Assembly: GCF_988242995.1 (NCBI RefSeq)
Contig: NZ_OZ547043.1
DNA length: 64,000 bases
Direction: 5' to 3' (one strand)
In this document: positions 18,722 through 50,144 of the stretch, in pieces
Position numbering within the stretch: the stretch's first letter is position 1
Layout of the letters: every line of letters starts with the position of its first letter
Position numbers and translations under genes: made by a program
Notes under the pieces: model-generated
Seen by the model: only the letters and a program-made list of their open reading frames with translations
What the model was told of the DNA's origin: nothing
Databases searched by the model: none

Positions 18722-19681
18722 ATGATAAAAAAACCTGTGATTGGAATCAGCGGTTGTCTGGCCGGTTCTGCTGTTCGTTTTGATGGTGGTCACAAAAGAG
18801 CTGACTTTTTAATGGACAAATTAGTGGAATGGGTAACATTCAGACCAGTATGTCCGGAAATGGCTATAGGGCTGCCAGTTCCGCGTCCTGCTCTACGTCT
18901 TGTGCGCTCGACGCAAGGAAATATACGGATGTGTTTCAGCCACGACCAGAATGAGGATGTGACAGAGAGAATGACAGAGTTTAGTCGTTCTTATATGGAC
19001 AAATTAAAGGATGTATCGGGGTTTGTGGTTTGTGCTAAATCTCCCAGCTGTGGCATGGAGCGCGTGCGTGTCTATGATGAAAATGGTAATCGAGGTCGTA
19101 AAGATGGAGTGGGACTATTTACGAGCACTTTGATGGAAAAGTTTTCCTGGCTACCGGTTGAAGAGGATGGGCGATTACATGATCCAGTGCTTCGTGAGAA
19201 TTTTGTTGAAAGAGTTTTTGCTTTGCATGAGCTCAATCACCTTTACAAGGAGAAATTATCAAGAAGAGAGTTATTAGCTTTTCATAGTCGTTATAAGCTT
19301 CAGTTGTTGGCGCATAGTCAGGCAGGCTATAAAGATATGGGACCATTTGTGGCTGCAATACACGAGTGGGCGGACCTTGAATCATACTTTGAGGTGTATC
19401 GTGATAAGCTGATGGCGATTCTCAGAAAACCTGCATCACGTAAAAATCACACGAATGTGCTGATGCATATACAGGGGTATTTTAGTAACTACTTAAGTAC
19501 ACGCCAGCGTAAAGAGTTGAGCGAGGTTATACTTAACTATCGTTCTGGCACATTACCTCTTCTTGCGCCGTTGACTCTGCTGAAGCATTATCTGGGTGAG
19601 TATCCTAATGATTACTTGCTTACACAGAATTACTTCGATCCCTATCCGGACGAACTGGCTCTAAGACTGATGGTAAATTAA
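18722..19681 (+). CDS. DUF523 (Cys-rich) / DUF1722 (YbgA-like) fusion protein
   Basis: 319-aa ORF with strong RBS AGGGGGAGGA; Cys-rich N-terminal half and YbgA-like C-terminal half (domain assignment from memory). Confidence 0.65.
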   Translation: MIKKPVIGISGCLAGSAVRFDGGHKRADFLMDKLVEWVTFRPVCPEMAIGLPVPRPALRLVRSTQGNIRMCFSHDQNEDVTERMTEFSRSYMDKLKDVSGFVVCAKSPSCGMERVRVYDENGNRGRKDGVGLFTSTLMEKFSWLPVEEDGRLHDPVLRENFVERVFALHELNHLYKEKLSRRELLAFHSRYKLQLLAHSQAGYKDMGPFVAAIHEWADLESYFEVYRDKLMAILRKPASRKNHTNVLMHIQGYFSNYLSTRQRKELSEVILNYRSGTLPLLAPLTLLKHYLGEYPNDYLLTQNYFDPYPDELALRLMVN

Positions 19682-29060: not shown

Positions 29061-29315
29061 ATGTCGATGTACACAACCGCCCAGCTGCTGGCGGCAAATG
29101 AGCAGAAATTTAAGTTTGATCCGCTGTTTCTGCGTCTCTTTTTCCGTGAGAGCTATCCCTTCACCACGGAGAAAGTCTATCTCTCACAAATTCCGGGGCT
29201 GGTAAACATGGCGCTGTACGTTTCGCCGATTGTTTCCGGTGAGGTTATCCGCTCCCGTGGCGGCTCCACCTCTGAATTTACGCCGGGATATGTCAAGCCG
29301 AAGCACTTAGCATGA
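29061..29315 (+). pseudogene. E: Major capsid gene E, 5' fragment (codons 1-84) truncated by the satellite insertion
   Basis: MSMYTTAQLLAANEQKFKFDPLF...GYVKPKH then two foreign codons and stop; the rest of E resumes at 40394. Confidence 0.9.
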
Positions 29316-29468
29316 CTTTCTGAGGCTTTCGTGTAGTTGCTGGTTTTTACACTTAATCTTTTGATAATAAAGAATAAGTTTATCTGGTGCTTTCACTGAA
29401 TTTTCCTCGTTATCTGTGTGTTGCAATCATCTCTGTATTGCAGCTTGTATTGCTTTTTGGGGCTAAAA

Positions 29469-30704
29469 ATGGCTGGCGAGAACAAACTGAGCGACAAAGC
29501 GCTTAAAGGATATCTGGGGAAACCCAGAGAAAAGCAGATCACCATTGCTGATGGAAAGGGGCTTTCTATTCGTGTGAGTACTAAAGGGGCTGTGAGCTTT
29601 GTTTTCTTCTACAGGTTAGCAGGTGGCCGGGCTGCTCCGGTCTGGCTAACGTTGGGTAAATATCCTGATATGTCACTCAAACAGGCAAGGGAAAAGCGCG
29701 ACGAGTGCCGTGGTTGGTTGGCTGACAAACGTGATCCGCGTATCCAGATTAAGATTCAGGCTGAAGAACGCTTAAAGCCGGTTACAGTGGAGGATGCACT
29801 AAATTACTGGTATGAAAATTACTGTAAGGTGCGTCGTAAAACTCATGCTGTAACGCTTGGCAGATTTCGAAAGCATATCTTTCCCTATATCGGTCATTTG
29901 CCCGTAAATGACACTCACCTATATGAATGGCTGGACTGTTTTGACCGAATTAAACGTAATGCACCAGTTATGGCGGCGTATGTTTTTTCTGACACTAAAT
30001 TAGCTCTTCGTTTTTGTCGGGTACGCCAGTACGCGACGTGTGATGCTTTAAAGGATTTGCGCATGAGTGATGTGGGGCAGATTGCAGGTAAGCGGGATCG
30101 GGTTCTGGATGAAGCCGAACTCGGCCAGCTCTGGAAGGCAATTTTTGTCGAGCCTGATTTAAAACTAATGTCTGAATACACGCGAAAAATGTTTGTGCTT
30201 TGTACAGTATTTGGATGTCGAATGAGTGAAGCCCGATTATCAGAATGGAGCGAATGGGATCTCGAAAGTTGGGTTTGGACTGTACCAAAAGATCACTCAA
30301 AAACTGGTGTTGAAATCGTCAGACCAGTACCTGAAATTCTACGACAGTGGGTAACGGATGTTCACGAAGAGACAAAACATACTGGTTATGTGCTGGGAAG
30401 TCTGCGAATTAGAGAAAGCGTAAGCAAGATTGGGGGGAAAATCGGTAAACGTTTGGGCCATGAAAAACAATGGTCACTACACGACCTTAGAAGAACGCTA
30501 TCTACTCATCTAAGTGATCTCGGTGTTGAATTTTATGTAGTAGAACAACTGTTAGGCCATGCGCTACCTGGCGTGGCAGGTGTTTACAACCGGAGTAAGT
30601 TTATGGCTAAAAAACTGGATGCTCTGGAACTCTGGACTACATATCTCAATAGCATCGCAGCTGCTGATTCAAAAGTGACAATCCTCAAACAAAAGGTTGG
30701 TTAA
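29469..30704 (+). CDS. Satellite tyrosine integrase (P4-type)
   Basis: From MAGENKLSDKALKGYLG...; catalytic region HDLRRT...LLGH...VYNRS; located at the element's left end. Confidence 0.85.
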   Translation: MAGENKLSDKALKGYLGKPREKQITIADGKGLSIRVSTKGAVSFVFFYRLAGGRAAPVWLTLGKYPDMSLKQAREKRDECRGWLADKRDPRIQIKIQAEERLKPVTVEDALNYWYENYCKVRRKTHAVTLGRFRKHIFPYIGHLPVNDTHLYEWLDCFDRIKRNAPVMAAYVFSDTKLALRFCRVRQYATCDALKDLRMSDVGQIAGKRDRVLDEAELGQLWKAIFVEPDLKLMSEYTRKMFVLCTVFGCRMSEARLSEWSEWDLESWVWTVPKDHSKTGVEIVRPVPEILRQWVTDVHEETKHTGYVLGSLRIRESVSKIGGKIGKRLGHEKQWSLHDLRRTLSTHLSDLGVEFYVVEQLLGHALPGVAGVYNRSKFMAKKLDALELWTTYLNSIAAADSKVTILKQKVG

Positions 30705-30705
30705 C

Positions 30706-30933
30706 ATGAAAAAAATGGCAATTGTTGATAAAAAGGGTCTGGAGTACATTCCTAACATTGACCGAATGATCCGTGAGAAAGAATGTCGGGAGCTAACCAC
30801 TCTTGCGAACAGCACACGCTGGAAGCTGGAGAAGGAAGGAAAATTTCCTAAGCGGATCAAGATTGGTTCCACTGCTGTTGCATATCGTCTTTCAGAAGTG
30901 CAGGCATGGATTCGAGGTGAGTGGGTAGTTTAA
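30706..30933 (+). CDS. alpA: AlpA-family HTH regulator/excisionase
   Basis: 75-aa ORF directly after int; the ORF-track start at 30697 is TTG, ATG at 30706 preferred. Confidence 0.7.
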   Translation: MKKMAIVDKKGLEYIPNIDRMIREKECRELTTLANSTRWKLEKEGKFPKRIKIGSTAVAYRLSEVQAWIRGEWVV

Positions 30934-31002
30934 ATTATCTCAGAATAAAATATTATGAATTACTGATTTGAGAATTTGTACTCAAATCAGTAATAACATT
31001 CT

Positions 31003-31539
31003 TTATAAGAGATTAAATCCAAATAAAGAGTAATCATATACCGGGGTGCATTGCATCCCACTGAATATGCTGATGTTTTTTTCTGTTTCTATCCTTTTTT
31101 CAATAAGTTGTTGTATATTTTTACAGTACAATTTGTGTGTGATGTTATTATCGTAAGCCTGATATAGCAACGTCAATGTTGATGCTATGAAACATGCAGA
31201 AAGAAAATGAACTAGTACATGTGAGCGTTTTTTGGTTGTCCATGATGCATTCGCTTGTGAAATATAAATCATTCTGAGAATGATAATGATGATAGACAGT
31301 AACAGACCACTCAATAAAATAAGTATTGGGTTTGCGTATTTAATTAATGGTTGAGAGCAAAAAACTATTATAGCTCCTGTGACTGCGTATGAGAAAAAGG
31401 AGTAATTAAACTTCTTACTCCTTCTCTCAAGTATTTTAATTTCATCTTGTGTGGGGGTTTTAGATGCCTCTAATATAAGTTTATTAAATGTTTCTGTTAT
31501 CTTGTTTTTTGTGTTTGTGGCTATTTTTTTTAGATTCAT
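31003..31539 (-). CDS. Hypothetical AT-rich membrane protein (2-3 predicted TM helices)
   Basis: 178-aa ORF with hydrophobic segments AVTGAIIVFCSQPLI and ILILLSGLLLSIIIIIL; convergent with alpA. Confidence 0.5.
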   Translation of the reverse strand: MNLKKIATNTKNKITETFNKLILEASKTPTQDEIKILERRSKKFNYSFFSYAVTGAIIVFCSQPLIKYANPILILLSGLLLSIIIIILRMIYISQANASWTTKKRSHVLVHFLSACFIASTLTLLYQAYDNNITHKLYCKNIQQLIEKRIETEKNISIFSGMQCTPVYDYSLFGFNLL

Positions 31540-31889
31540 AGCATTCTAACTCCCTTAACTTATTTATTACTTTCTCTTTATGATAAGAGAGGGGAATGAC
31601 TTGGTAAAGTGATTTGTCATTAATAATGATAATCCTTGCGATAAATATTTCTGCAAGTTATTTACCTGTTTGTTGCTATCTTGTTAAGCGTTGGGTGTGG
31701 TTTATGTTTGGAGCGACTTTATTTAATCGTGATTTTATGGATTTATATTTATATCCTGTAAGATAAGCGCATGTTAGTTCAGGAGTAGTGTCAGATAAAA
31801 TTATTCGGAGTAGAACTACCTTTTCTGTTTATTGCCAGTATTTACATAGCAATGCGCCGTAGTTACTCACATCACGGCGCTGATACTAA

Positions 31890-32195
31890 TTATTCAGATT
31901 CTTTGGCTTTACGCCGCTGGAGTTCTTCACGAGCGACGGCTACGAGTTGCCCGATTTCCTCCGCTGCCTTGATACCGATTTGTTCGACCTTAGCTAAGGC
32001 ATCCAGTGAAGACACGAGGGGATTTTCTCCGCTTCCTTCTGCCTGGCGGCGGGCGATTTCACCGCGCATGGCGGTTACGATAAATCCGGCATTGCTTTCA
32101 CCGTCCAGCTTAACGGATTCCATCCCTTGCATAACATCTAGTGGGACTCTGACAGTTGTCAGTTGTGATTTTGCGTTTTTGTTAGCCGTTGCCAT
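31890..32195 (-). CDS. Putative ribbon-helix-helix regulator (candidate satellite repressor)
   Basis: 101-aa ORF; TVRVPLDVMQGMESVKLDGESNAGFIVTAMRGEIARR fits a beta-strand/helix/G-x-S/helix RHH pattern; divergent from the primase operon. Confidence 0.4.
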   Translation of the reverse strand: MATANKNAKSQLTTVRVPLDVMQGMESVKLDGESNAGFIVTAMRGEIARRQAEGSGENPLVSSLDALAKVEQIGIKAAEEIGQLVAVAREELQRRKAKESE

Positions 32196-32256
32196 TTCTG
32201 AAACTCCTAATCATCGGTGTGTTTCAGTATACACAAAAAAAGAAATACAAAAAGCC

Positions 32257-32292
32257 TTGACGTGTGTTTCATGCGCTCATAACATGAAACAC
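32257..32292 (+). promoter_or_regulatory. Promoter (TTGACG-17 nt-TAACAT) overlapped by a palindromic operator
   Basis: Inverted repeat GTGTTTCATG (32264-32273) / CATGAAACAC (32283-32292) straddles the -10 element. Confidence 0.5.
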
Positions 32293-32385
32293 ACCGAAAG
32301 GATTGTTGAAATACAAAGAGCAACGCCCCGCAGTGCTGGGAACACATACGGGGCGTCTAACCAACAACGTAAACTAGGAGCCGTT

Positions 32386-32583
32386 ATGGTTGCTGTAAAT
32401 CATATACCACACCTTGTACACACACAAACGGCCTTTGTGTGGCGTTTTCTGGCACTGAGTGCCGGAGAATCTCAAATCATCCACGTAACCGCCTGGACGG
32501 AACGCGAAGCGCGTAGCCGTTGCCCGTCCGGTTGTGTTGCTGTATTCGCTGCAAAAATCCGCCAGGGAGTGAGTCATGCTTAA
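32386..32583 (+). CDS. Small hypothetical protein, first gene of the satellite rightward operon
   Basis: 65-aa ORF with AGGAG RBS 5 nt upstream of ATG 32386; the longer ORF-track frame from 31852 is rejected. Confidence 0.45.
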   Translation: MVAVNHIPHLVHTQTAFVWRFLALSAGESQIIHVTAWTEREARSRCPSGCVAVFAAKIRQGVSHA

Positions 32584-32761
32584 AACCTTCCGTGTATTTG
32601 CCCGAGCTGTTAACCCAATAGGCCACACAATTGGTATCGCTCAGAATGTGAAGGCTGTTAATGTTCAGACGGCTATTGCTGCGGTGAGAAGCGAATCATC
32701 AGAATATGGCTTATCACAAGTCATTATTTCAGCAGTGTATGAATTAAAAGAGGTGCATTAA
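32576..32761 (+). CDS. Small hypothetical protein
   Basis: 61-aa ORF; start overlaps the preceding stop (ATGCTTAA). Confidence 0.35.
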   Translation: MLKTFRVFARAVNPIGHTIGIAQNVKAVNVQTAIAAVRSESSEYGLSQVIISAVYELKEVH

Positions 32762-32952
32762 TGCAGGAAATCACATTACACGAAGCCGCTGAACGTGCGC
32801 ACCAGACAGAAATTATTTGCCGCCTTCTTGAGGTATATCCGAACAAAATTACAGATGCTGATATATCCGCGCTGGCGAGCCTACTGGCGCGCCTTTCGGG
32901 AAGTGTCGCTAGTTTCCTCATTGAGGAAGAAAGTAAGCTGGTGGGGGATTAA
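32761..32952 (+). CDS. Small hypothetical protein
   Basis: 63-aa ORF translationally coupled to neighbours. Confidence 0.35.
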   Translation: MQEITLHEAAERAHQTEIICRLLEVYPNKITDADISALASLLARLSGSVASFLIEEESKLVGD

Positions 32953-33174
32953 ATGAATACAGAACGGGAAGTCTTTTTTAAATTGTTAGCATGTGCAGAA
33001 AGTTCATTAACTTTAAATAATTCAGCAAAAGCAATATTAAATATGTGGCTTGATTGCATAAATGACAATGAAGATGCAAATATTGCTTATGGCCTGTTGT
33101 CACTTATTGATGAATCAGCAGAAAAACTCAATGACGCAATAAATAGTGCCCTGCTATCAAATAAGTCGAGTTAA
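32953..33174 (+). CDS. Small hypothetical protein
   Basis: 73-aa ORF, AT-rich. Confidence 0.35.
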   Translation: MNTEREVFFKLLACAESSLTLNNSAKAILNMWLDCINDNEDANIAYGLLSLIDESAEKLNDAINSALLSNKSS

Positions 33175-33191
33175 GTCGAGGAATAAATAAT

Positions 33192-33491
33192 ATGGAAATG
33201 AAAAATTCTGGCTTTATTGCCAGCGGCCCCGCTCGGCCTGAATTTATGAACGGCGATATTTACCGCGATAAATACGGCGGCACGGTAACGATTAAAGGCG
33301 TGGCAGAACGGCGCATCACTTACCGCCGTGAGGGGTATAGCTATGACTGCGTGATGCCTGTTTATCAGTTCCGGCGTGATTTTTCCCTGGTATATGCCGC
33401 ACCCCGCAGTAAGCCCATCAGCAGGGAAAAAGCGCGGGGAAACATCCAGAAAATGAAAAGCATGATTAACGCATTCAGGGGCAAAAAATGA
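33192..33491 (+). CDS. Hypothetical protein
   Basis: 99-aa ORF ending at the primase start. Confidence 0.4.
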   Translation: MEMKNSGFIASGPARPEFMNGDIYRDKYGGTVTIKGVAERRITYRREGYSYDCVMPVYQFRRDFSLVYAAPRSKPISREKARGNIQKMKSMINAFRGKK

Positions 33492-35239
33492 AACTGGCAC
33501 CGAACTTAAAAAAACAGCCACGCGACAGACTGACAGAGGTAATCATCTTTGCAGGTAGTGATGCGTGGAGCCATGCGAAAGAGTGGCGGGAATGGGCGGG
33601 TAAACATATTGCCGCCGACGATGTGCCGCCTGTCGTGCTGGCTGATGAGCAACTGAAAAATATCACCGATTACCGGATCATTGATGAAGATCGTCAGTGT
33701 GTGCGTGTTTACCGCGCAGGACATATCACAGAGCACAGCATGACGCAGATTGTTACGTTACTGGCTGTGGCTGGAGTGAAGACCGTACACGAATACGCGG
33801 GGATTACTGACACCAGCCCAGTGGATTTATCCGAGCAGTTGCCGCGACTCAAAGAGGAATGCGAGCGTGGGGAAAGTCTGGTGCTTAATCTTCCGACGAA
33901 GCAAAAGGCGCAACTTTCACAGATGGCAGACAGTGAACGTGCACAACTACTTGCCGATCGCTTTGATGGTGTGTGTGTTCATGCAGAAAGTGAAATCGTC
34001 CACGTATGGCGCGGCGGGGTATGGTGTCCGGTCAGCACAATGGAGCTGAGCCGCGAAATGGTGGCGATCTATTCAGAGCACAGGGCCACGTTCAGCAAAC
34101 GTGTAATCAATAACGCCGTGGAAGCGTTAAAAGTTATTGCCGACCCCATGGGGGAGCCGTCCGGTGATTTGCTACCGTTCACTAATGGTGTGCTTAACCT
34201 GAAAACGGGGGAATTTTCTCCGCACTCGCCGGAGCACTGGAGCACCACGCACAATGGCATTGAGTACACGCCACCAGTAGCAGGGGAAAACATCCGCGAT
34301 AATGCGCCAAATTTCCATAAATGGCTTGAACATGCTGCAAGAAAAGACCCGCGCAAGATGATGCGTATATGTGCCGCGTTATACATGATTATGGCGAACC
34401 GCTACGACTGGCAGATGTTCATTGAGGCCACCGGAGACGGGGGAAGCGGTAAGAGTACATTTACCCATATTGCCACCCTGCTTGCTGGCAAACAGAACAC
34501 CGTAAGCGCGGAGATGACATCACTCGATGATGCAGGAGGGCGCGCGCAGGTTGTCGGGAGTCGTCTTATCGTCCTTGCCGATCAGCCGAAATATACGGGG
34601 GAAGGCACGGGCATCAAGAAAATCACGGGAGGCGATCCCGTTGAAATTAACCCGAAATATGAGAAGCGATTCACGACGATAATAAGGGCGGTGGTACTGG
34701 CAACCAATAACGACCCGATGATCTTTACCGAACGGGCCGGAGGTGTGTCACGCCGTCGGGTGATTTTCCGGTTCGACAACATTGTAAGGGAGGACGAAAA
34801 AGACAAGGAATTACCGGAAAAGATAGCGGCAGAAATCCCCGTAATTATCCGCCGCTTGCTGGCTAATTTTGCTGACCCTGAAAAGGCACGGGCTTTATTA
34901 CTGGAACAGCGTGACGGTGATGAAGCTCTGGCAATAAAGCAGCAAACGGATCCGGTTGTTGAGCTTTGCGCGGCGCTGGAGTTTCTGGAGGAAGCTCGTG
35001 GGCTAATGATGGGCGGTGGTGGTGACACCGTGAAGTACACGACCAGAAACAGCCTTTACCGTGTCTATATGGCCTTCATGGCATACACAGGAAAGGGGAA
35101 ATGTTTGAGCGTGAATGAGTTCGGAAAGGCTATGAGGTCAGCGGCGAAAGTTTACGGATATGAATATATTACGCGAAAAGTTAAGGGAGTCACGCAGACC
35201 AACGCAACGACTACTGATGATTGCGATGCGTTTTTATAA
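33488..35239 (+). CDS. Primase/SF3-helicase replication protein
   Basis: 583-aa ORF with Walker A (TGDGGSGKST) in the C-terminal half and primase-like N-terminal half; followed by iterons. Confidence 0.8.
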   Translation: MKLAPNLKKQPRDRLTEVIIFAGSDAWSHAKEWREWAGKHIAADDVPPVVLADEQLKNITDYRIIDEDRQCVRVYRAGHITEHSMTQIVTLLAVAGVKTVHEYAGITDTSPVDLSEQLPRLKEECERGESLVLNLPTKQKAQLSQMADSERAQLLADRFDGVCVHAESEIVHVWRGGVWCPVSTMELSREMVAIYSEHRATFSKRVINNAVEALKVIADPMGEPSGDLLPFTNGVLNLKTGEFSPHSPEHWSTTHNGIEYTPPVAGENIRDNAPNFHKWLEHAARKDPRKMMRICAALYMIMANRYDWQMFIEATGDGGSGKSTFTHIATLLAGKQNTVSAEMTSLDDAGGRAQVVGSRLIVLADQPKYTGEGTGIKKITGGDPVEINPKYEKRFTTIIRAVVLATNNDPMIFTERAGGVSRRRVIFRFDNIVREDEKDKELPEKIAAEIPVIIRRLLANFADPEKARALLLEQRDGDEALAIKQQTDPVVELCAALEFLEEARGLMMGGGGDTVKYTTRNSLYRVYMAFMAYTGKGKCLSVNEFGKAMRSAAKVYGYEYITRKVKGVTQTNATTTDDCDAFL

Positions 35240-35252
35240 AAAATGGCAATGG

Positions 35253-35482
35253 TTATCTACCTTGTCTACCTGACTGAAAGAAAATACTTTTATTTCAATG
35301 TATTAATGCAGGTAGATAACTATTTTTCACTGTCTACCTGTTATCTACCTTATCTACCCATTTTTGTAGACAGGTAAGGAGACGGGTAGAGATGAGGTAG
35401 ACAGCTATTTGGGGCTGTCTACCTCCCTGAAACCCGCGCCATTACTGGCCTGATAACTAATCAGGTAGACAAGGTAGACAAG
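35253..35482. repeat. Satellite replication origin iterons (at least 10 copies of GGTAGACA/TGTCTACC in both orientations)
   Basis: Dense cluster of the 8-bp core in a 230-bp non-coding stretch just 3' of the primase gene. Confidence 0.75.
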
Positions 35483-35528
35483 GTGGTGGTGCACAAAAAA
35501 CTTTTTAAACGAGGGGGTAAAAATAAAA

Positions 35529-35786
35529 ATGCACACATCAGGAAAACTGAACAAACATATAAAGCCACATTACCGCGCCCTTGATATGGCTGAACACTGG
35601 CTAAGGGTGGCGATTAAGGCAATAGACCGCAACGCCGGGGAAGGATACGCGAAAGCACATCCCGAACTGATAAGCGCATTCATGACAACGGCGGCTGCAA
35701 ACTTTGCCACGCTGACCGAACGGGAGATTGCTGAAGCGGAGGAAGTGACAACAATCAATATTAAGTCCGGAGAGCAGGCAGCATGA
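35529..35786 (+). CDS. Hypothetical protein
   Basis: 85-aa ORF upstream of and coupled to ssb. Confidence 0.4.
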   Translation: MHTSGKLNKHIKPHYRALDMAEHWLRVAIKAIDRNAGEGYAKAHPELISAFMTTAAANFATLTEREIAEAEEVTTINIKSGEQAA

Positions 35787-36232
35787 CGGCGCAAATATCA
35801 GTTTACGGGCGGTTGGTGGACGACCCGCAGACAAAACAGACCAGCAAGGGCACCCCCATGACGCTGGCGCGTATGGCGGTATCACTGCCCTGCAGTCAGT
35901 CGGATGACGGTCTGGCGACGTTGTGGTTATCTGTCCTGGCGTTTGGCAGACAAGCCGACGCGCTGGCAAAGCATCACAAAGGCGAACTCCTGAGCGTGGC
36001 GGGTAACATGCAGATGAGCCAGTGGACTGGACAGAACGGCGAAACGCGGCAGGGCTGGCAGGTTATCGCAGACAGCGTAATCAGTGCGCGATCGGTGCGA
36101 CCGGGCGGCAAAAAAGGCCAACAGGGGCAGGCTACTGACGCACTGAACAGAGCAAAACAACAGGCAGATCAGCAAGGAAGCCAGCCACCAGAGGGAGATA
36201 ATGAGCAATGGGGAGATGATATCCCGTTTTAA
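35783..36232 (+). CDS. ssb: Single-stranded DNA-binding protein
   Basis: 149-aa ORF with Gly/Gln-rich linker and acidic C-terminal tail ending DDIPF. Confidence 0.8.
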   Translation: MTAQISVYGRLVDDPQTKQTSKGTPMTLARMAVSLPCSQSDDGLATLWLSVLAFGRQADALAKHHKGELLSVAGNMQMSQWTGQNGETRQGWQVIADSVISARSVRPGGKKGQQGQATDALNRAKQQADQQGSQPPEGDNEQWGDDIPF

Positions 36233-36448
36233 ATATTGCCAATAAAAAAAGCCGGAAAAAATAAATTTTCCGGCATGCTACATAAATCCCGACCAAAGGG
36301 AGTGAAGATATTAACACTAATTGTCCGCACTGAAGTTGTCACCCCAAAACTTTATACAACATTGCACTCGGTTGCATGTGTTCGCATGACAAATATCGGT
36401 GATAGCATATATCCACAATTATTTTTAATGAATGCAAAGAGGATGCGT

Positions 36449-37489
36449 ATGGTTGATTTATATTCGCCTACTCAGCTTGTACAGGTAGTTAATGCTGTAG
36501 ATGTACAAAAACAACTAAATGCGTTATTTACCAGTTTGTTTTTTACTCGCTCGGTAATGTTTGAATCGCGCGATATTATTCTTGATACAATCGACGATCC
36601 AAATATCCCAATTGCAGCGTTTTGTTCTCCTATGGTGGGTAGTAAAGTTTCACGTGACGAAGGGTACGAATCAAAAACAATTCGTCCAGGCTATATGAAG
36701 CCGAAAAGCAGCATTGATCCAAATAAGTTAGCTGTGCGCCCTGCTGGTGTGTCACCTGAGCAATACAATGCTTTTGGGGCGCGTAATATTAAAGTTAAAC
36801 AGGCGATTGTAAATCAGGCTAAAGCTATTCGTGCACGTATTGAATGGCTTGCTGTTCAGGCAATCACAACGGGGAAAAATATCATTGAGGGCGATGGTAT
36901 TGAACGTTATGAGCTGGACTGGAATATAAAACCACAAAATATCATCACTCAGTCTGGCGGTACTGAGTGGTCAGGTAAGGATAAAGAAACTTTTGATCCA
37001 AATGATGATATTGAGAGCTACGCAGAATTTAGTGAGGGCGTCACTAATATCATCATTATGGGTGGTAATGTATGGAAGAAATACCGTTCATTCAGAGCGA
37101 TAAAAGAGGCTTTGGATACCCGTCGTGGTTCTAATTCCGAACTGGAAACGGCCCTTAAAGACCTTGGTGATTCGGTGAGTTTTAAAGGGTATATGGGCGA
37201 TGTTGCGATTGTTGTTTACAGCGGGCGTTATACCGACGAGGACGGAACAGAAAAACATTTCCTTGATCCTGATTTGATGGTGCTTGGCAATACGGCTCTT
37301 CAGGGGATTGTCGCCTATGGCGGTATTCAGGATCCGGAGCTAATCCGAATGGGGCTGACTAAAGCCGAACTTGCACCGAAAAACTATATTGTGCCTGGTG
37401 ATCCGGCTATTGAATATGTGCAGACACATTCAGCACCACAGCCAATACCGGCCCGCATCAATCGTTTTGTTACCGTTCGCATTGGCTAA
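36449..37489 (+). CDS. Satellite-encoded major capsid protein homologue (lambda E-like)
   Basis: 346 aa; aligns with lambda E along its length (e.g. IITQSGGTEWSGKDKETFDPNDDIESYA vs NITQSGGTEWSKRDKSTYDPTDDIEAYA; DTRRGSNSELETALKDLG; GDVAIVVYSG). Confidence 0.8.
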   Translation: MVDLYSPTQLVQVVNAVDVQKQLNALFTSLFFTRSVMFESRDIILDTIDDPNIPIAAFCSPMVGSKVSRDEGYESKTIRPGYMKPKSSIDPNKLAVRPAGVSPEQYNAFGARNIKVKQAIVNQAKAIRARIEWLAVQAITTGKNIIEGDGIERYELDWNIKPQNIITQSGGTEWSGKDKETFDPNDDIESYAEFSEGVTNIIIMGGNVWKKYRSFRAIKEALDTRRGSNSELETALKDLGDSVSFKGYMGDVAIVVYSGRYTDEDGTEKHFLDPDLMVLGNTALQGIVAYGGIQDPELIRMGLTKAELAPKNYIVPGDPAIEYVQTHSAPQPIPARINRFVTVRIG

Positions 37490-37498
37490 GGGGGAGCA

Positions 37499-37840
37499 AT
37501 GGCTACTCATTACACTGAACTCATGGCTGGCACTGAAGCACTGGTGACTACGCTGGGGATATTTTCAGCTAATAAAGGGGTAATTCCTGCATTTACGCCA
37601 CTGATGCAGGAAGATGCAACAGGTGCACTGGTGGTATGGGATGGTTCGAGCGTAGGTAAAGCGGTTTATGTTTCCGCTGTACAAATCGACACCGCGAAAA
37701 AAACACAGGCTCAGGTCTATAAGACAGGTGTCTTAAATGTTGATGCTCTGAACTGGCCTGAGTCTGTTAAAGAACTGTCAGTAAAGGTTGCAGCGTTTGT
37801 TGGCTCAGGTATTTCTGTTCAGCCGCTGGCTCGTGTGTAA
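37499..37840 (+). CDS. Satellite-encoded head decoration protein homologue (lambda D-like)
   Basis: 113-aa ORF; TPLMQEDATGALVVWDGSSVGKAV...VYKTG parallels lambda [22 protein letters not shown]...FYKSG. Confidence 0.7.
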   Translation: MATHYTELMAGTEALVTTLGIFSANKGVIPAFTPLMQEDATGALVVWDGSSVGKAVYVSAVQIDTAKKTQAQVYKTGVLNVDALNWPESVKELSVKVAAFVGSGISVQPLARV

Positions 37841-37851
37841 AGGGGGATACA

Positions 37852-38235
37852 ATGCAGAATGATTACAATGACCTTAAGCCAATTGCCGAAATGATGTACC
37901 CGAATCCAGCTGTAGAGGAATTAAAAGCTATCGCTGACAAAATGTGTTTAAGCGAGCGCCTTGTTGATATGAATCAGGTGATGGAAATTACAACCCTGAG
38001 TCGTCGTACACTGCTAAACCTTGAGGCTAGTGGAGAGTTCCCGGAGCGTGTGCAGGTTACGGAAGGGCGTAAGGCCTGGTATTTAAGTGAAGTGATCGAC
38101 TGGATAAATAATATTCCTCGCGCTTCTGAATATTGCCGCGTACCTGTCCCAAAAAAGCCAGATGCGGCGCTATGCCTCAAGATTGAGCGTGTACGCCGCA
38201 ATGCACGGGATGGTCGCTATAAGCTGATTGGTTGA
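37852..38235 (+). CDS. Winged-HTH (AlpA/MerR-excisionase-like) protein adjacent to satellite cos
   Basis: 127-aa ORF; C-terminal MEITTLSRRTLLNLEASGEFPERVQVTEGRKAWYLSEVIDWINN HTH; strong RBS; ends 20 bp before the cos-homologous region. Confidence 0.6.
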   Translation: MQNDYNDLKPIAEMMYPNPAVEELKAIADKMCLSERLVDMNQVMEITTLSRRTLLNLEASGEFPERVQVTEGRKAWYLSEVIDWINNIPRASEYCRVPVPKKPDAALCLKIERVRRNARDGRYKLIG

Positions 38236-38257
38236 TGAAATTAGGGCCCGCTCTGGC

Positions 38258-38465
38258 TGGCGGGTCCTTTCCGGTGATCCAGAACGTTACGGGGCGTCAG
38301 GCGCGCAGATTCTTGCTATTTATGACAATTTTCTGCGATTTGCCGTTTCCGTTCTTCTTCCTCGTAACTTAGTGTTTTTACTAGAAATACCCTCTAAAAA
38401 GAAAGGAAATGACAGGTGCTGAAAACAGGCTTTTGGGTCTCCGTCATTTCCTTTCTCATTTTTAT
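38258..38465. promoter_or_regulatory. Satellite cos site homologous to the prophage cos (variant cosN GGGCGTCAGGCG at 38292-38303)
   Basis: About 210 bp alignable with 22896-23110; flanking and downstream repeat segments conserved, 12-mer differs at 5 positions. Confidence 0.75.
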
Positions 38466-38718
38466 CTAAAAGTAAGCATCGAGGCCACCCCAAATGCTTA
38501 TAGAGGTTATTGTGTCACTATGCGTACTGTTCAGGATTTAAAGTAGCAAGACATCTAGTTGCTTGCAGTTTTGGCGAATGATGTGAGGTTCTCTATAACA
38601 GATAATGTAACAAGTTACTGATATATTCTGTTATGGTTGACTTTAAATTTTGTTGCTCCTTCAATGAATTATTGAGGGGTAAAAATTAGGCGTGATAAGA
38701 ATCGATCACGCCTATTGT

Positions 38719-40035
38719 TTATCTTGAAGAAATTTTAGGCAGGCTTTTTAAAAATAAATCTTTATTTCTACTTGCATCAGTTAAAAGTGTTAGGAATATT
38801 TTATCTGTAGGAGTGCATGTGCTCTTGTTTAACAGTAATTCACCAAGTTTCTGTAATCGAGAGAATTGCCCATCCTCTTGGATTCTGTGACGAAGTGTAC
38901 TATCATTTTTAATAACATCAACAAATGCAGAAACCATGTTAATATCAAAGTGTTCAAACATTTCCAATATTAAAGGTGCAGCCCCATTTGAATAAAAATT
39001 CTTCCTTCCATACTGATAGCTGAAACCACGATGGCCAACATAAGTTTTTGTAATGGCTGAAACAAATTCAACAATATTATCTTCAGGGACGAAACTCGAG
39101 AATGGTAATAATTGGGTTACGATTTTTTCCTCTTCTGACCAATTATCTAAAGACTCGGTGAGTTTATTAATGAGAGGCTCAATAATAACTTTTCGGGATG
39201 CAGGGCTAATATACATCAGTCCATCTACCAATAGTATGAATTGTTGTGCCTTCTCTATCTTATTGTTGTTTCCTGAAACTAAATACTTGTCAAATTGTTG
39301 GCCGACTTTACGTCGGTCGTCTTTTGAAAGTAATGTCCATAAAATAGGTGCGCAAAATTCAATGTTGTTTCTGAGTTCACTTGATATATTGGATGAGCAG
39401 TATGTGCCAAAAAAACGAGAGGATAATTCACTGATATAAATTGCAGGTAGATCTGAAAAGGCTTGCTTAACTGCCAGACTATTTTTATTAAATGTTGCCG
39501 AATCCATTTCTGAAAGATATGTAGTTATATCTATGATGGCTGGTGGAAACTCTTTAGAAAGAACGTATTTATTACAATCATTAATCAGGTTCACTACTTT
39601 GATTAAATCAGGGTCGCTACTTTGTGGATGTCCACCAAATAGATTCCTGGTTTCTCTAGCTTGTTGTAATAGTTTCTGACCTTCTCGATCGATAACTCCT
39701 ATTTTAAATGCTCCATCTATTAAATCAAAGTCGCTCACATAATCCTGAAAATCTTCATACGTTTTAATTTCTTTTTTTTGTTTACACTCTTTGTTGAATA
39801 GATCTAGGCTACGATGAATTATCTTTTGACGTAAATCATCAACTACAGCATTCCAGTAAGCAGTGATGGCACTTCTATAACCTTTTACAGGAAGAACTCT
39901 TATTGCTTCTGAAATATATGGGCAGTCAACTACATCATGCCTCACAGTTGAGAGCGCAGTTTGTAACAATGTAACTTCTGTAGAGTCTAGTGGAGTTGGC
40001 TGCACTAAATGAGAACTTATCTCTGTACCCTTCAT
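38719..40035 (-). CDS. AT-rich 438-aa protein with HEPN-like R-x5-H motif (candidate anti-phage/abortive-infection protein)
   Basis: Single long ORF in the satellite's variable end; RNLFGGH at residues 130-136; no ATPase motifs; own AT-rich promoter region 40036-40150. Confidence 0.6.
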   Translation of the reverse strand: MKGTEISSHLVQPTPLDSTEVTLLQTALSTVRHDVVDCPYISEAIRVLPVKGYRSAITAYWNAVVDDLRQKIIHRSLDLFNKECKQKKEIKTYEDFQDYVSDFDLIDGAFKIGVIDREGQKLLQQARETRNLFGGHPQSSDPDLIKVVNLINDCNKYVLSKEFPPAIIDITTYLSEMDSATFNKNSLAVKQAFSDLPAIYISELSSRFFGTYCSSNISSELRNNIEFCAPILWTLLSKDDRRKVGQQFDKYLVSGNNNKIEKAQQFILLVDGLMYISPASRKVIIEPLINKLTESLDNWSEEEKIVTQLLPFSSFVPEDNIVEFVSAITKTYVGHRGFSYQYGRKNFYSNGAAPLILEMFEHFDINMVSAFVDVIKNDSTLRHRIQEDGQFSRLQKLGELLLNKSTCTPTDKIFLTLLTDASRNKDLFLKSLPKISSR

Positions 40036-40393
40036 TTCAGGATTTTCCTATTCTTTTCCATTTTTCTACTCTATTGAATTTGAAAAAGATATCAAGTTCG
40101 TTCTTGCCAGTTTTAAGTGGAAAATTTGATGTTACCTTATTGAGATAAGGCAGTTCTCTATAACCTATTGTTATTAATTATTTTTATTTTTTTCCAATTC
40201 AGATGTTTAGGGCTAAGAAGTTAAGTGAGAGTTCACAGCAAAACTGCTTCTAGTTCCTCACCGAGGAGCAAAAGGTTAAGACAGCGTACTTTGTATTGCA
40301 CAATGTATTGCAGAACCTTCTTTCGAAAGCTACAACAATCAATTTTATATTGAAAATTCAATCATATCCTTTCGATATTGACTCATATAACCC

Positions 40394-41179
40394 AAGCATG
40401 AGGTGAATCCGCAGATGACCCTGCGTCGCCTGCCGGATGAAGATCCGCAGAATCTGGCGGACCCGGCTTACCGCCGCCGTCGCATCATTATGCAGAACAT
40501 GCGTGACGAAGAGCTGGCCATTGCCCAGGTCGAAGAGATGCAGGCAGTTTCTGCCGTGCTTAAGGGCAAATACACCATGACCGGTGAAGCTTTCGATCCG
40601 GTTGAGGTGGATATGGGCCGCAGTGCGGCCAACAACATCACGCAGTCCGGCGGCACGGAGTGGAGCAAGCGTGACAAGTCCACGTATGACCCGACCGACG
40701 ATATCGAAGCCTACGCGCTGAACGCCAGCGGAGTGGTGAATATCATCGTGTTTGATCCGAAAGGCTGGGTGCTGTTCCGTTCCTTCAAAGCCGTCAAGGA
40801 GAAGCTGGATACTCGTCGCGGCTCTCATTCCGAGCTGGAGACAGCGGTGAAAGACCTGGGCAAAGCGGTGTCCTACAAGGGGATGTATGGCGATGTGGCC
40901 ATCGTCGTGTATTCCGGACAGTACGTGGAAAACGGCGTCAAAAAGAACTTCCTGCCGGACAACACGATGGTGCTGGGGAACACTCAGGCACGCGGTCTGC
41001 GCACCTATGGCTGCATTCAGGATGCGGACGCACAGCGCGAAGGCATTAACGCCTCTGCCCGTTACCCGAAAAACTGGGTGACCACCGGCGATCCGGCGCG
41101 TGAGTTCACCATGATTCAGTCAGCACCGCTGATGCTGCTGGCTGATCCTGATGAGTTCGTGTCTGTACAACTGGCGTAA
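40394..41179 (+). pseudogene. E: Major capsid gene E, 3' fragment (codons 83-341)
   Basis: From KHEVNPQMTLRRLPDEDPQ... to ...DEFVSVQLA, matching lambda E downstream of the break. Confidence 0.9.
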
Positions 41180-49605: not shown

Positions 49606-50144
49606 AAACGGGGGCTGAAGCCATCCGGGCGCTGGCCACACAGCTCCCGGCGTTTCGTCAGAAACTGAGCGACGGCTGGTATCAGGTACGGATTGCCGGG
49701 CGTGATACAGGTGAAACGGAATTATCAGCCCGTCTTAATGAACCGCTGGCAAATGGTGCTGTGATCCATATCGTGCCGCGTCTGGCAGGAGCCAAAAGTG
49801 GCGGTGTGTTTCAGGCTGTGCTGGGGGCGGCTGTTATGGCGGTTGCTATATGGATGCCGGGGGTAGGAATTATGGCGAGTAATCTGCTGTTTTCTCTCGG
49901 TGCCAGTATGACGCTTGGCGGTGTTGCACAGATGCTGGCCCCTAAACCCAAAACCCCCCGCACACAGACAACGGATAACGGCAAACAGAACACCTATTTT
50001 TCTTCACTGGATAATATGGTTGCCCAGGGCAATGTTCTGCCCGTTCTGTACGGTGAAATGCGCGTGGGATCACGTGTGGTATCTCAGGAGATCAGCACAG
50101 CAGATGAAGGTGATGGTGGTCAGGTTGTGGTGATTGGTCGCTGA
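49503..50144 (+). CDS. I: Tail assembly protein I
   Basis: 213-aa ORF matching lambda I; overlaps the K 3' end. Confidence 0.85.
   Translation: MAATHTLPLASPGMARICLYGDLQRFGRRIDLRVKTGAEAIRALATQLPAFRQKLSDGWYQVRIAGRDTGETELSARLNEPLANGAVIHIVPRLAGAKSGGVFQAVLGAAVMAVAIWMPGVGIMASNLLFSLGASMTLGGVAQMLAPKPKTPRTQTTDNGKQNTYFSSLDNMVAQGNVLPVLYGEMRVGSRVVSQEISTADEGDGGQVVVIGR

Follow-up and report, generated by a model that had tools for sequence, protein, structure and literature searches.

A candidate YlcI/YnfO-family repressor module at the replication operon of a helper-embedded phage satellite

The window analysed here, a stretch of 64,000 nucleotides from contig NZ_OZ547043.1 (NCBI RefSeq assembly GCF_988242995.1), contains a phage-inducible chromosomal island (PICI), a satellite in which two leftward open reading frames (ORFs) lie between alpA and the rightward replication operon: a membrane-protein gene (31003-31539, 178 aa) and ylcI (31890-32195, 101 aa), whose product belongs to the YlcI/YnfO family. 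The original prediction, made from the sequence alone, had placed both ORFs exactly and had taken them, together with the promoter to their right, for one accessory block. Judged by sequence comparison, the block is two unrelated pieces, a core control module (31844-32320) and cargo (about 30950-31843); the accessory label suits the membrane gene, which is cargo, and does not suit ylcI and the promoter region, which belong to the conserved PICI core. The explanation that we favour, with a probability of roughly 0.6, is that the control module is an autoregulated repressor module of the replication operon and that the membrane gene forms a separate cargo cassette. For YlcI itself, the sequences are best read as those of a replication-operon repressor that also controls its own gene and comes in several immunity types; its binding, repression and oligomerisation we infer. 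The satellite is of a known type; the new part is the control region.

The control region contains the rightward promoter-like sequence that had been predicted, P_R, with TTGACG at 32257-32262, a 17-nt spacer and TAACAT at 32280-32285 on the plus strand (9 of 12 consensus positions). The consensus match alone is not above chance, as the region holds nine promoter-like sites against 5.2 +/- 2.4 in shuffled sequences; in 20 of 22 related loci, TTGAC lies at a constant offset of 60-63 nt from the ylcI ATG. The predicted inverted repeat, GTGTTTCATG/CATGAAACAC, is confirmed and extends beyond what was described, with perfect 12-nt arms at 32262-32273 and 32283-32294. It had been described as a single palindromic operator; in fact, the region has five half-sites, which make up two putative operators (O_L and O_R) and one extra site, and half-sites 1, 2 and 5 were absent from that description. 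The features are as follows.

32217-32226, plus strand: half-site 1, GTGTGTTTCA, exact, left arm of O_L
32226-32231, minus strand: candidate ylcI promoter -10, TATACT, between half-sites 1 and 2, proposed from the sequence and its relatives
32241-32250, minus strand: half-site 2, TTGTATTTCT, 7/10, right arm of O_L
32257-32285, plus strand: putative promoter P_R, TTGACG-17-TAACAT, a consensus match with a -35 of conserved position
32262-32271, plus strand: half-site 3, GTGTGTTTCA, exact, left arm of O_R, over the -35 end and the spacer
32285-32294, minus strand: half-site 4, GTGTGTTTCA, exact, right arm of O_R, over the -10 end and the expected start
32307-32316, minus strand: half-site 5, TTGTATTTCA, 8/10, in the transcribed leader

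Of the four exact copies of the 10-mer GTGTGTTTCA in the window, three lie inside 78 bp of the control region, and simple arithmetic gives a chance expectation of about 0.1 for any given 10-mer in the window; the repeat array is far beyond chance. The centres of the half-sites are 21-24 bp apart, and five sites recur at like offsets (about 23, 46, 68, 91 and 113 nt from the ATG) in several YlcI types. Half-sites 3 and 4, the best-conserved two of the five, overlie the -35 end and spacer and the -10 end and expected start of P_R in every type with such geometry, so that the overlap of operator and promoter in the original prediction holds. Half-sites 1 and 2 bracket the minus-strand TATACT (32231-32226), and a TATAnT-like element is found at a like position in most related loci. 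Two further candidate sites in the window were rejected: the fourth GTGTGTTTCA copy, at 49804, as a helper operator, since it is isolated, and a weak half-site pair at 19354/19378 as an extra operator, since its position is internal to a chromosomal gene; we attribute both to chance.

The layout is shared by 27 loci from nine genera (14 loci from a scan of genome contigs, supplemented by exact-protein look-ups): alpA, one or more optional small genes, leftward ylcI, a control region of about 190 bp, and then a rightward Icd- or Ash-like gene, DUF4222 and primase. The loci include EcCICFT073, the prototype Gram-negative PICI, and E. coli PICIs at tRNA-Pro, rcnR, cspD and other sites, as well as elements of Xenorhabdus, Photorhabdus, Enterobacter, Erwinia, Serratia, Pantoea, Cedecea and a record titled Martelella. 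Among 5426 complete E. coli genomes, 1077 contain some part of the 551-bp segment 31850-32400 and 263 contain at least 80% of it, with up to four places in a single genome matching part of the segment. From this distribution, 31844-32320 is a core part of the AlpA-type PICIs of Enterobacterales and not an accessory. A gene divergent from the replication operon, with half-sites on the -35 and -10 of P_R, is also the layout of a PICI master repressor.

Two variations on this layout were observed. In many related PICIs, a small and very basic ORF (57-84 aa, MTDKELTKTLSPARKRRRRK...) begins 58 nt past the ylcI stop, for example at L006 15243-15416, L003 3789-3983 and L021 3364-3567, and the arrangement suggests that ylcI and the basic ORF form one operon there; no such ORF is found in the window at 31540-31843. 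EcCICFT073 (L006 15474-15653) has a natural 59-aa YlcI that keeps the RHH (ribbon-helix-helix) domain and lacks the C-terminal helix of about 45 residues, and its half-sites, GTGGGCCACACCT, occur twice and are direct rather than inverted over P_R. The short YlcI and the direct sites may have to do with the fact that no repressor had been noticed there.

The evidence that YlcI reads the half-sites comes from covariation. The 216 YlcI homologues fall into discrete N-terminal types, and the remainder of the protein is near constant. Over the 27 loci there are at least eight such types, each with its own half-site, changed in concert at every copy:

SQLTTVRVP (LTTVRV): half-site TGTGTTTCA; E. coli, Xenorhabdus, Photorhabdus
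SQLFTVRVP: half-site TGTGTTTCA, as for LTTVRV; Serratia
SKQISIRIP (QISIRI): half-site TGTGATTCA; E. coli
SQQLNARFP (QLNARF): half-site TGGTATTCA; E. coli
SQSLTARIP (SLTARI): half-site TGTAAG(A/C/T)CA; E. coli, Enterobacter
SQMTT[LI]RVP: half-site TGTATATCA; E. coli
SQALKARVP (ALKARV): half-site TGGGCCACA; EcCICFT073
SRQKTARVP (QKTARV): half-site TGGGAGTCA; Cedecea
KN[VI]R types: half-site GTGTGTATTT, in a different arrangement; Erwinia, Serratia, Pantoea and the 'Martelella' record

When the left O_R site of a locus was used as the reference, the other three sites of the same locus showed 7.6 mismatches, compared with 13.6 for references taken from loci of other types. Within the LTTVRV type, which spans four genera (E. 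coli, Xenorhabdus, Photorhabdus and Serratia), identity reaches 92% in the half-site columns and 82% in the remaining ones (P = 6e-4), with free variation in the O_R spacer. The most direct comparison is offered by three PICIs of the capE group (the window, L033 and L023), in which AlpA is 100% identical and YlcI residues 21-101 are 95-98% identical, whereas the half-sites are of three different kinds and YlcI residues 1-20 are only 40-65% identical. Conversely, loci that share a half-site have YlcI N-termini at least 90% identical, whereas their AlpA proteins are only 20-82% identical. AlpA was therefore ruled out as the reader of the repeats, as identical AlpA proteins occur with three half-sites and ones of only 20-41% identity with a shared half-site. 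Nor do half-sites go with the first operon gene: the window and L021 have in common a first gene (MVAVNH...) and differ in their sites, and the window and L003 have common half-sites and different first genes. Across these loci the type of half-site goes with YlcI residues 1-20 and not with AlpA, and the covariation points to the 101-aa protein, the candidate binder of the original prediction.

The family assignment of YlcI is by profile. Residues 9-50 match NCBIfam NF041551 (YlcI_YnfO_N) with 62.6 bits against a cut-off of 30 (E = 2.7e-17), the RefSeq annotation of an identical protein also names the YlcI/YnfO family, and the protein matches in addition a PHROG of unknown function. An RHH-like N-terminus had been proposed, which the predicted fold supports and the sequence profiles do not. 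AlphaFold2 models (pLDDT 80 and 84; the pLDDT-80 model was built from a 20-sequence alignment, and the models are monomeric) place an extended segment at residues 7-17, with a strand at about 12-17, followed by helices at 19-28 and 35-55 and a long helix at 59-100, and thus contain the strand-helix-helix arrangement of about 45 residues that characterises an RHH fold. RHH profiles of Pfam (RHH_1, Arc, CopG and related ones) gave no significant match for YlcI; the best RHH-like profile was PSK_trans_fac, which stayed below threshold (best E = 3e-3; E <= 0.1 for 8 of 20 members). A search of PDB sequences found no relative, and no paper on the function of the YlcI/YnfO family was found in the searchable literature. 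The invariant R16-x-P18 and G32-x-S34 of YlcI can be aligned with two motifs of Arc and Mnt, RWP/RMP at the strand end and NGRS at the turn. If this alignment holds, the base-contacting strand positions would be 12, 14 and 16, and position 13 would point inward. In the Serratia LFTVRV variant, the only change in the predicted strand is at position 13 and the LTTVRV half-site is retained, as expected under such a strand-contact model. A dimeric RHH sheet reading the repeated sites would fit the covariation of protein and half-site. The gene and its flank are as follows.

31890-32195, minus strand: ylcI, putative repressor of the YlcI/YnfO family (101 aa), with N-terminal arm, predicted RHH domain and long C-terminal helix, from profile match and predicted fold
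31854-31880, minus strand: conserved GC-rich hairpin directly after the ylcI stop, at the left edge of the conserved module (-20.4 kcal/mol, z = -2.5)

The hairpin is kept in ATCC 25922, CFT073 and UMNF18. The GC content of ylcI is 51%, and that of the segment from the icd-like gene through ssb is 50%. No second YlcI homologue of a helper prophage was found within the window, and the copy present in a RefSeq relative is missing here. That prophage-type ylcI has an upstream 13-bp inverted repeat, ATCAATTAATACG-7-CGTCATAATTGAT (L001 859-891); a role as operator-binding regulators is likewise possible for the short YlcI/YnfO proteins found in lambdoid prophages.

In the switch that we propose, RHH dimers of YlcI would occupy each of the five 10-bp half-sites (GTGTGTTTCA and its variants), and the long C-terminal helices would join neighbouring dimers about two helical turns (21-24 bp) apart. 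A complex on half-sites 3 and 4 would occlude P_R and silence the leader, the icd-like gene, primase and ssb, and occupancy of half-sites 1 and 2 around the ylcI -10 would provide negative autoregulation. Specificity would lie in the first 20 or so residues, the protein/half-site pairs, at least eight in number, would define immunity types, and with many specificities several such satellites could coexist without cross-repression. From the sequences, the reading of the control region as a lysogeny switch is plausible. A wider proposal, which we hold only tentatively and would not bet on at even odds, is that RHH proteins of the YlcI/YnfO type are the missing maintenance repressors of AlpA-type PICIs, with at least eight heteroimmune groups and a readable code. 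In this code, the four middle base pairs of TG-NNNN-(T)CA would be matched to strand positions 12 and 14 together with the N-terminal arm. Induction would be sensed by the near-invariant C-terminal helix, via a helper protein or AlpA, and in a helper-embedded PICI the switch would also time the recovery of the helper's capsid gene.

Several points weigh against the explanation that we favour. EcCICFT073 induction requires the activator AlpA, whose overexpression alone is sufficient (PMC6092414); in the same paper, Fillol-Salom et al. call a global repressor in Gram-negative PICIs 'unclear', and none was found. RHH oligomers do not usually have sites 21-24 bp apart, half-sites 2 and 5 match imperfectly (7/10 and 8/10), and the YlcI of EcCICFT073, with 59 aa and no C-terminal helix, may behave differently. 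For the membrane protein, Pfam, PADLOC and PHROG searches gave no family match. In addition, the N-terminal codons of ylcI abut the sites, and linkage could yield part of the correlation; it does not explain the concerted change of all three to five copies, yet it weakens the inference on which protein binds. The same contiguity, by which N-terminal codons and sites are exchanged together, is what favours a view in which a different factor (AlpA, the product of the first operon gene or a host protein) binds the repeats and YlcI matches them by hitch-hiking of adjacent DNA. We regard this as highly improbable, because AlpA identity does not follow half-site identity in either direction, the first operon gene varies within one half-site type, and the Serratia LFTVRV variant keeps the LTTVRV half-site.

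YlcI might also regulate only itself, as an antitoxin- or addiction-type RHH protein acting with the downstream basic ORF, and leave the replication operon to AlpA alone. The weak VapB-like signal (PSK_trans_fac), the basic ORF 58 nt past ylcI in many PICIs and the induction of EcCICFT073 by AlpA overexpression alone are in line with this; however, the window holds no partner ORF, the two best-conserved half-sites lie exactly on the -35/spacer and -10/start of P_R, and the strong terminator-like hairpin after alpA (30959-30994) makes read-through from alpA into the operon unlikely, so that P_R should be the operon promoter. On balance we find self-regulation alone unlikely. The related idea of a toxin-antitoxin pair, of YlcI with the membrane protein or a small ORF, is ruled out for the window: a type II antitoxin would have a co-transcribed toxin gene beside it, yet no ORF follows ylcI for 350 bp, the basic ORF of the other PICIs is absent, the membrane gene occurs in 67 genomes against at least 263 with the ylcI segment, and a homologue of the membrane gene also occurs where there is no ylcI. 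Lastly, YlcI could bind the sites and act as an activator or as a Cro-like late regulator after induction, given that activation and repression are combined in some RHH proteins, AmrZ among them (PMC3325190). Sites over both core promoter elements normally repress, a divergent and autoregulated layout is that of maintenance repressors such as P22 Mnt and SaPI Stl, and the -35 of P_R is near consensus, so an activator should be unneeded; this role is still less probable than self-regulation alone. A maintenance repressor is the reading that we retain.

As a likely relative in function, the Mnt/Arc system of phage P22 has a small RHH repressor of a mobile element encoded divergently from the promoter that it represses, as predicted for YlcI, and its R-x-P and G-x-S motifs are alignable with those of YlcI. 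The specificity of Arc and Mnt is set by a short N-terminal region, according to Knight & Sauer 1989 as cited in PMC3325190, and Mnt's C-terminal domain makes tetramers (PMC3325190). In contrast, no homology between Mnt/Arc and YlcI is detectable by hidden Markov models (HMMs), P22 uses one operator of about 17-21 bp where YlcI has five half-sites with a 21-24 bp period, and the gene controlled is an antirepressor gene in P22 and a satellite replication operon here. AmrZ of Pseudomonas aeruginosa shares the extended N-terminus, RHH domain and C-terminal oligomerisation domain in about 100 aa; it occupies half-sites in the form of a dimer of dimers and controls its own expression (PMC3325190). 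However, AmrZ is a chromosomal global regulator with another site spacing and no sequence similarity to YlcI. In the omega repressor of pSM19035, heptads are contiguous with a 7-bp period, and a run of at least four is required, whereas the YlcI sites are 21-24 bp apart.

The SaPI repressor Stl and Rpr of Gram-positive PICIs resemble YlcI in lying between the integrase and replication sides, divergently from the replication operon, and in having many specificity variants. Stl and Rpr are helix-turn-helix proteins that are not known to be related to the predicted RHH protein YlcI; the likeness is one of functional analogy only, set by position and predicted fold, and derepression by a helper protein has been shown for Stl. 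By analogy, the control module would work like the P22 Mnt/Arc immI switch and fill the role of Stl/Rpr, and is by sequence a member of neither family. P4 (P_LE-kil/eta-CI RNA) and P1 (c4-icd-ant) share with the module the map place between alpA/vis and primase, a first operon gene annotated as Icd-like or Ash/eta-like, and a structured leader. They differ in that repression there is by antisense or processed RNA, whereas here a putative protein repressor gene is present and there is no C4 or isrK match. With Rfam covariance models of the C4, CI and isrK immunity RNAs, no match was obtained at E <= 1 over 12 kb or at E <= 10 over 1.3 kb, and a P4/P1-type immunity RNA in the leader was ruled out for lack of a C4, isrK or credible Rfam match. 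The leader and the gene that follows it are as follows.

32323-32356, plus strand: conserved leader hairpin, supported by covariation, followed by the invariant TCTAACCA 5' of the first operon gene
32386-32583, plus strand: first rightward operon gene, Icd-like, followed by small ORFs, DUF4222, primase and ssb, from the RefSeq annotation of the identical locus

The arms of the leader hairpin are ACGCCCCG...CGGGGCGT, with an inner AGTG/CAC stem, and TCTAACCA lies within 32357-32385, before the start codon of the icd-like gene. RNAalifold on the raw alignment had missed the hairpin; when it was specified by hand and its pairs were counted, four pairs showed compensatory changes among 20 PICIs, a covariation score reached by none of 500 shuffles. 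No Rfam family matches the hairpin, which could be a processing, stability or regulatory RNA element.

The window is of E. coli origin. The wider element was identified through a RefSeq E. coli chromosome locus that is 100% identical to window region 30940-32400. The gene order of this locus is int, alpA, a hypothetical protein, a YlcI/YnfO-family protein, an Icd-like protein and small ORFs, followed by DUF4222, primase, ssb, major capsid and head decoration. On either side of the element lies one half of a lambda-like major capsid pseudogene, and terminase, portal, protease and decoration genes stand immediately upstream of the capsid pseudogene halves and the element. In the window, the N-terminal fragment of capsid gene E stops at 29315 and adjoins int at 29418-30704. 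An int-alpA...primase-ssb-capsid element lying inside, and in the same orientation as, a lambda-like major capsid gene is a helper-embedded PICI of the capE group. Such elements have been published with integration, 'Bro', replication and late zones (PMC10111431), in an account that leaves the 101-aa YlcI/YnfO-family protein undiscussed. The whole satellite spans 29316-40600, inserted in the lambda-like major capsid gene E of the prophage. Within it are divergent capsid and decoration genes of its own at 36.4-37.8 kb and a second AlpA-like gene at 37852-38235. At its right end (38400-40400) there is a second AT-rich block (33-36% GC) with a leftward ORF of 438 aa at 38719-40035; a RefSeq relative that is near-identical elsewhere has HEPN and DUF262 genes in this place, which marks another cargo hotspot with turnover.

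The cargo cassette on the left of the control module comprises four features.

30959-30994, either strand: hairpin with a perfect 14-bp stem between the convergent alpA and membrane genes, bidirectional and terminator-like, from folding against shuffled sequences
31003-31539, minus strand: cargo gene for a predicted three-pass inner-membrane protein of 178 aa, from hydropathy, charge and a GC content of 31%
31540-31843, strand not assigned: AT-rich non-coding part of the cassette (34% GC over the gap 31540-31889), delimited by the blastn boundary and composition
31580-31608, minus strand: candidate membrane-gene promoter, TTTACC-17-TATCAT, proposed from its consensus match (9/12)

The hairpin at 30959-30994 has z-scores of -5.6 on the minus and -4.1 on the plus strand, none of 200 shuffles folds as well, and it probably terminates both alpA and the membrane gene. 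Homology to other PICIs in blastn starts at 31844, at the conserved hairpin past the ylcI stop; from 31843 leftward to alpA the cassette is specific to capE PICIs and takes the place of the basic ORF of other elements. The AT-richness and the membrane location proposed for the 178-aa product agree with its 31% GC and with three hydrophobic segments in the hydropathy profile, at residues of about 46-66, 71-93 and 107-127. These are flanked by a basic N-terminus of 45 aa and a C-terminal domain of 50 aa with two invariant Cys, and, to judge from the distribution of charges, the N-terminus would be cytoplasmic and the C-terminal domain periplasmic. The ATG is preceded by a Shine-Dalgarno sequence, AAGGGAG, and the ORF is intact in all alleles. 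On the opposite strand, a hydrophobic ORF of 50 codons with a TTG start (31614-31766, plus), preceded by AGGGGA and by a promoter-like site at 31555-31584 (plus), was observed, which may well be spurious.

The membrane gene is present in 67 of the 5426 E. coli genomes, where all relatives are at least 88% identical, and close relatives were found in E. coli only. An exhaustive HMMER search extended them to a thin, distant family (23-36% identity) with invariant P64, P71, G78, C139 and C164. One homologue occupies the same slot in another capE PICI that has no ylcI, and another adjoins a small integrase. A third (28% identity; L037/L038 5001-5486) is a lone opposite-strand gene of an uncultured phage, in a moron position between a Mu-F-like head gene and scaffold/capsid genes. 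Two alleles differ almost only at residues 83-119 (31183-31306, minus), that is, the end of the second transmembrane (TM) segment, the cytoplasmic loop and the start of the third; 40 of the 44 nucleotide differences fall within 124 bp, and the 304 bp of upstream non-coding DNA contain a single difference. The patch reflects either recombination or diversifying selection. The membrane protein has no family in NCBIfam, PADLOC or PHROG, and its best Pfam match, DUF443 (E = 1.1e-3), is not significant.

The membrane gene is a real gene and true cargo in the alpA-ylcI hotspot. Because of its cargo- and moron-like genomic context, our guess, made by analogy, is that its product interferes with incoming phage at the envelope, as in superinfection exclusion. 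The comparison is with SieA (P22), SieB (lambda), gp15 (HK97) and Imm (T4), small inner-membrane exclusion proteins; the points of likeness are a small predicted inner-membrane product, an AT-rich cargo gene of a mobile element with a promoter (here a candidate) of its own, and relatives that are morons. The cargo protein has no sequence or profile similarity to them. There is a substantial chance, falling somewhat short of even, that the protein is not anti-phage and serves as a host-fitness or lysogenic-conversion factor, or as a small toxin or holin-like satellite protein. In this direction point a homologue (P0130) that has metE and ugp genes nearby in an ordinary stretch of chromosome, the lack of a PADLOC match, and a three-TM layout that is common to many unrelated protein classes. 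However, the other homologues are a phage moron, an integrase neighbour and an occupant of another satellite's hotspot, and the hypervariable patch of 37 residues in otherwise near-identical alleles suggests an arms race.

Gram-negative PICIs have been described with no known repressor, and their induction has been ascribed to the activator AlpA alone (PMC6092414). A conserved, divergent YlcI with sites on the replication-operon promoter is a concrete repressor candidate for these elements, and would place an immunity module of the RHH repressor/operator kind where earlier descriptions had none. The control module gives the YlcI/YnfO family, uncharacterised in the searchable literature, its first functional hypothesis, and the family would gain a function if the proposal is true. 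The discrete protein/half-site pairs predict which satellites would coexist or cross-repress, and may represent a natural set of orthogonal repressors and operators. Since the satellite interrupts the helper capsid gene (PMC10111431), whatever silences the satellite also gates helper capsid production. The membrane gene, meanwhile, is an instance of cargo turnover in the alpA-ylcI hotspot and a candidate for a new envelope-level phage-exclusion protein.

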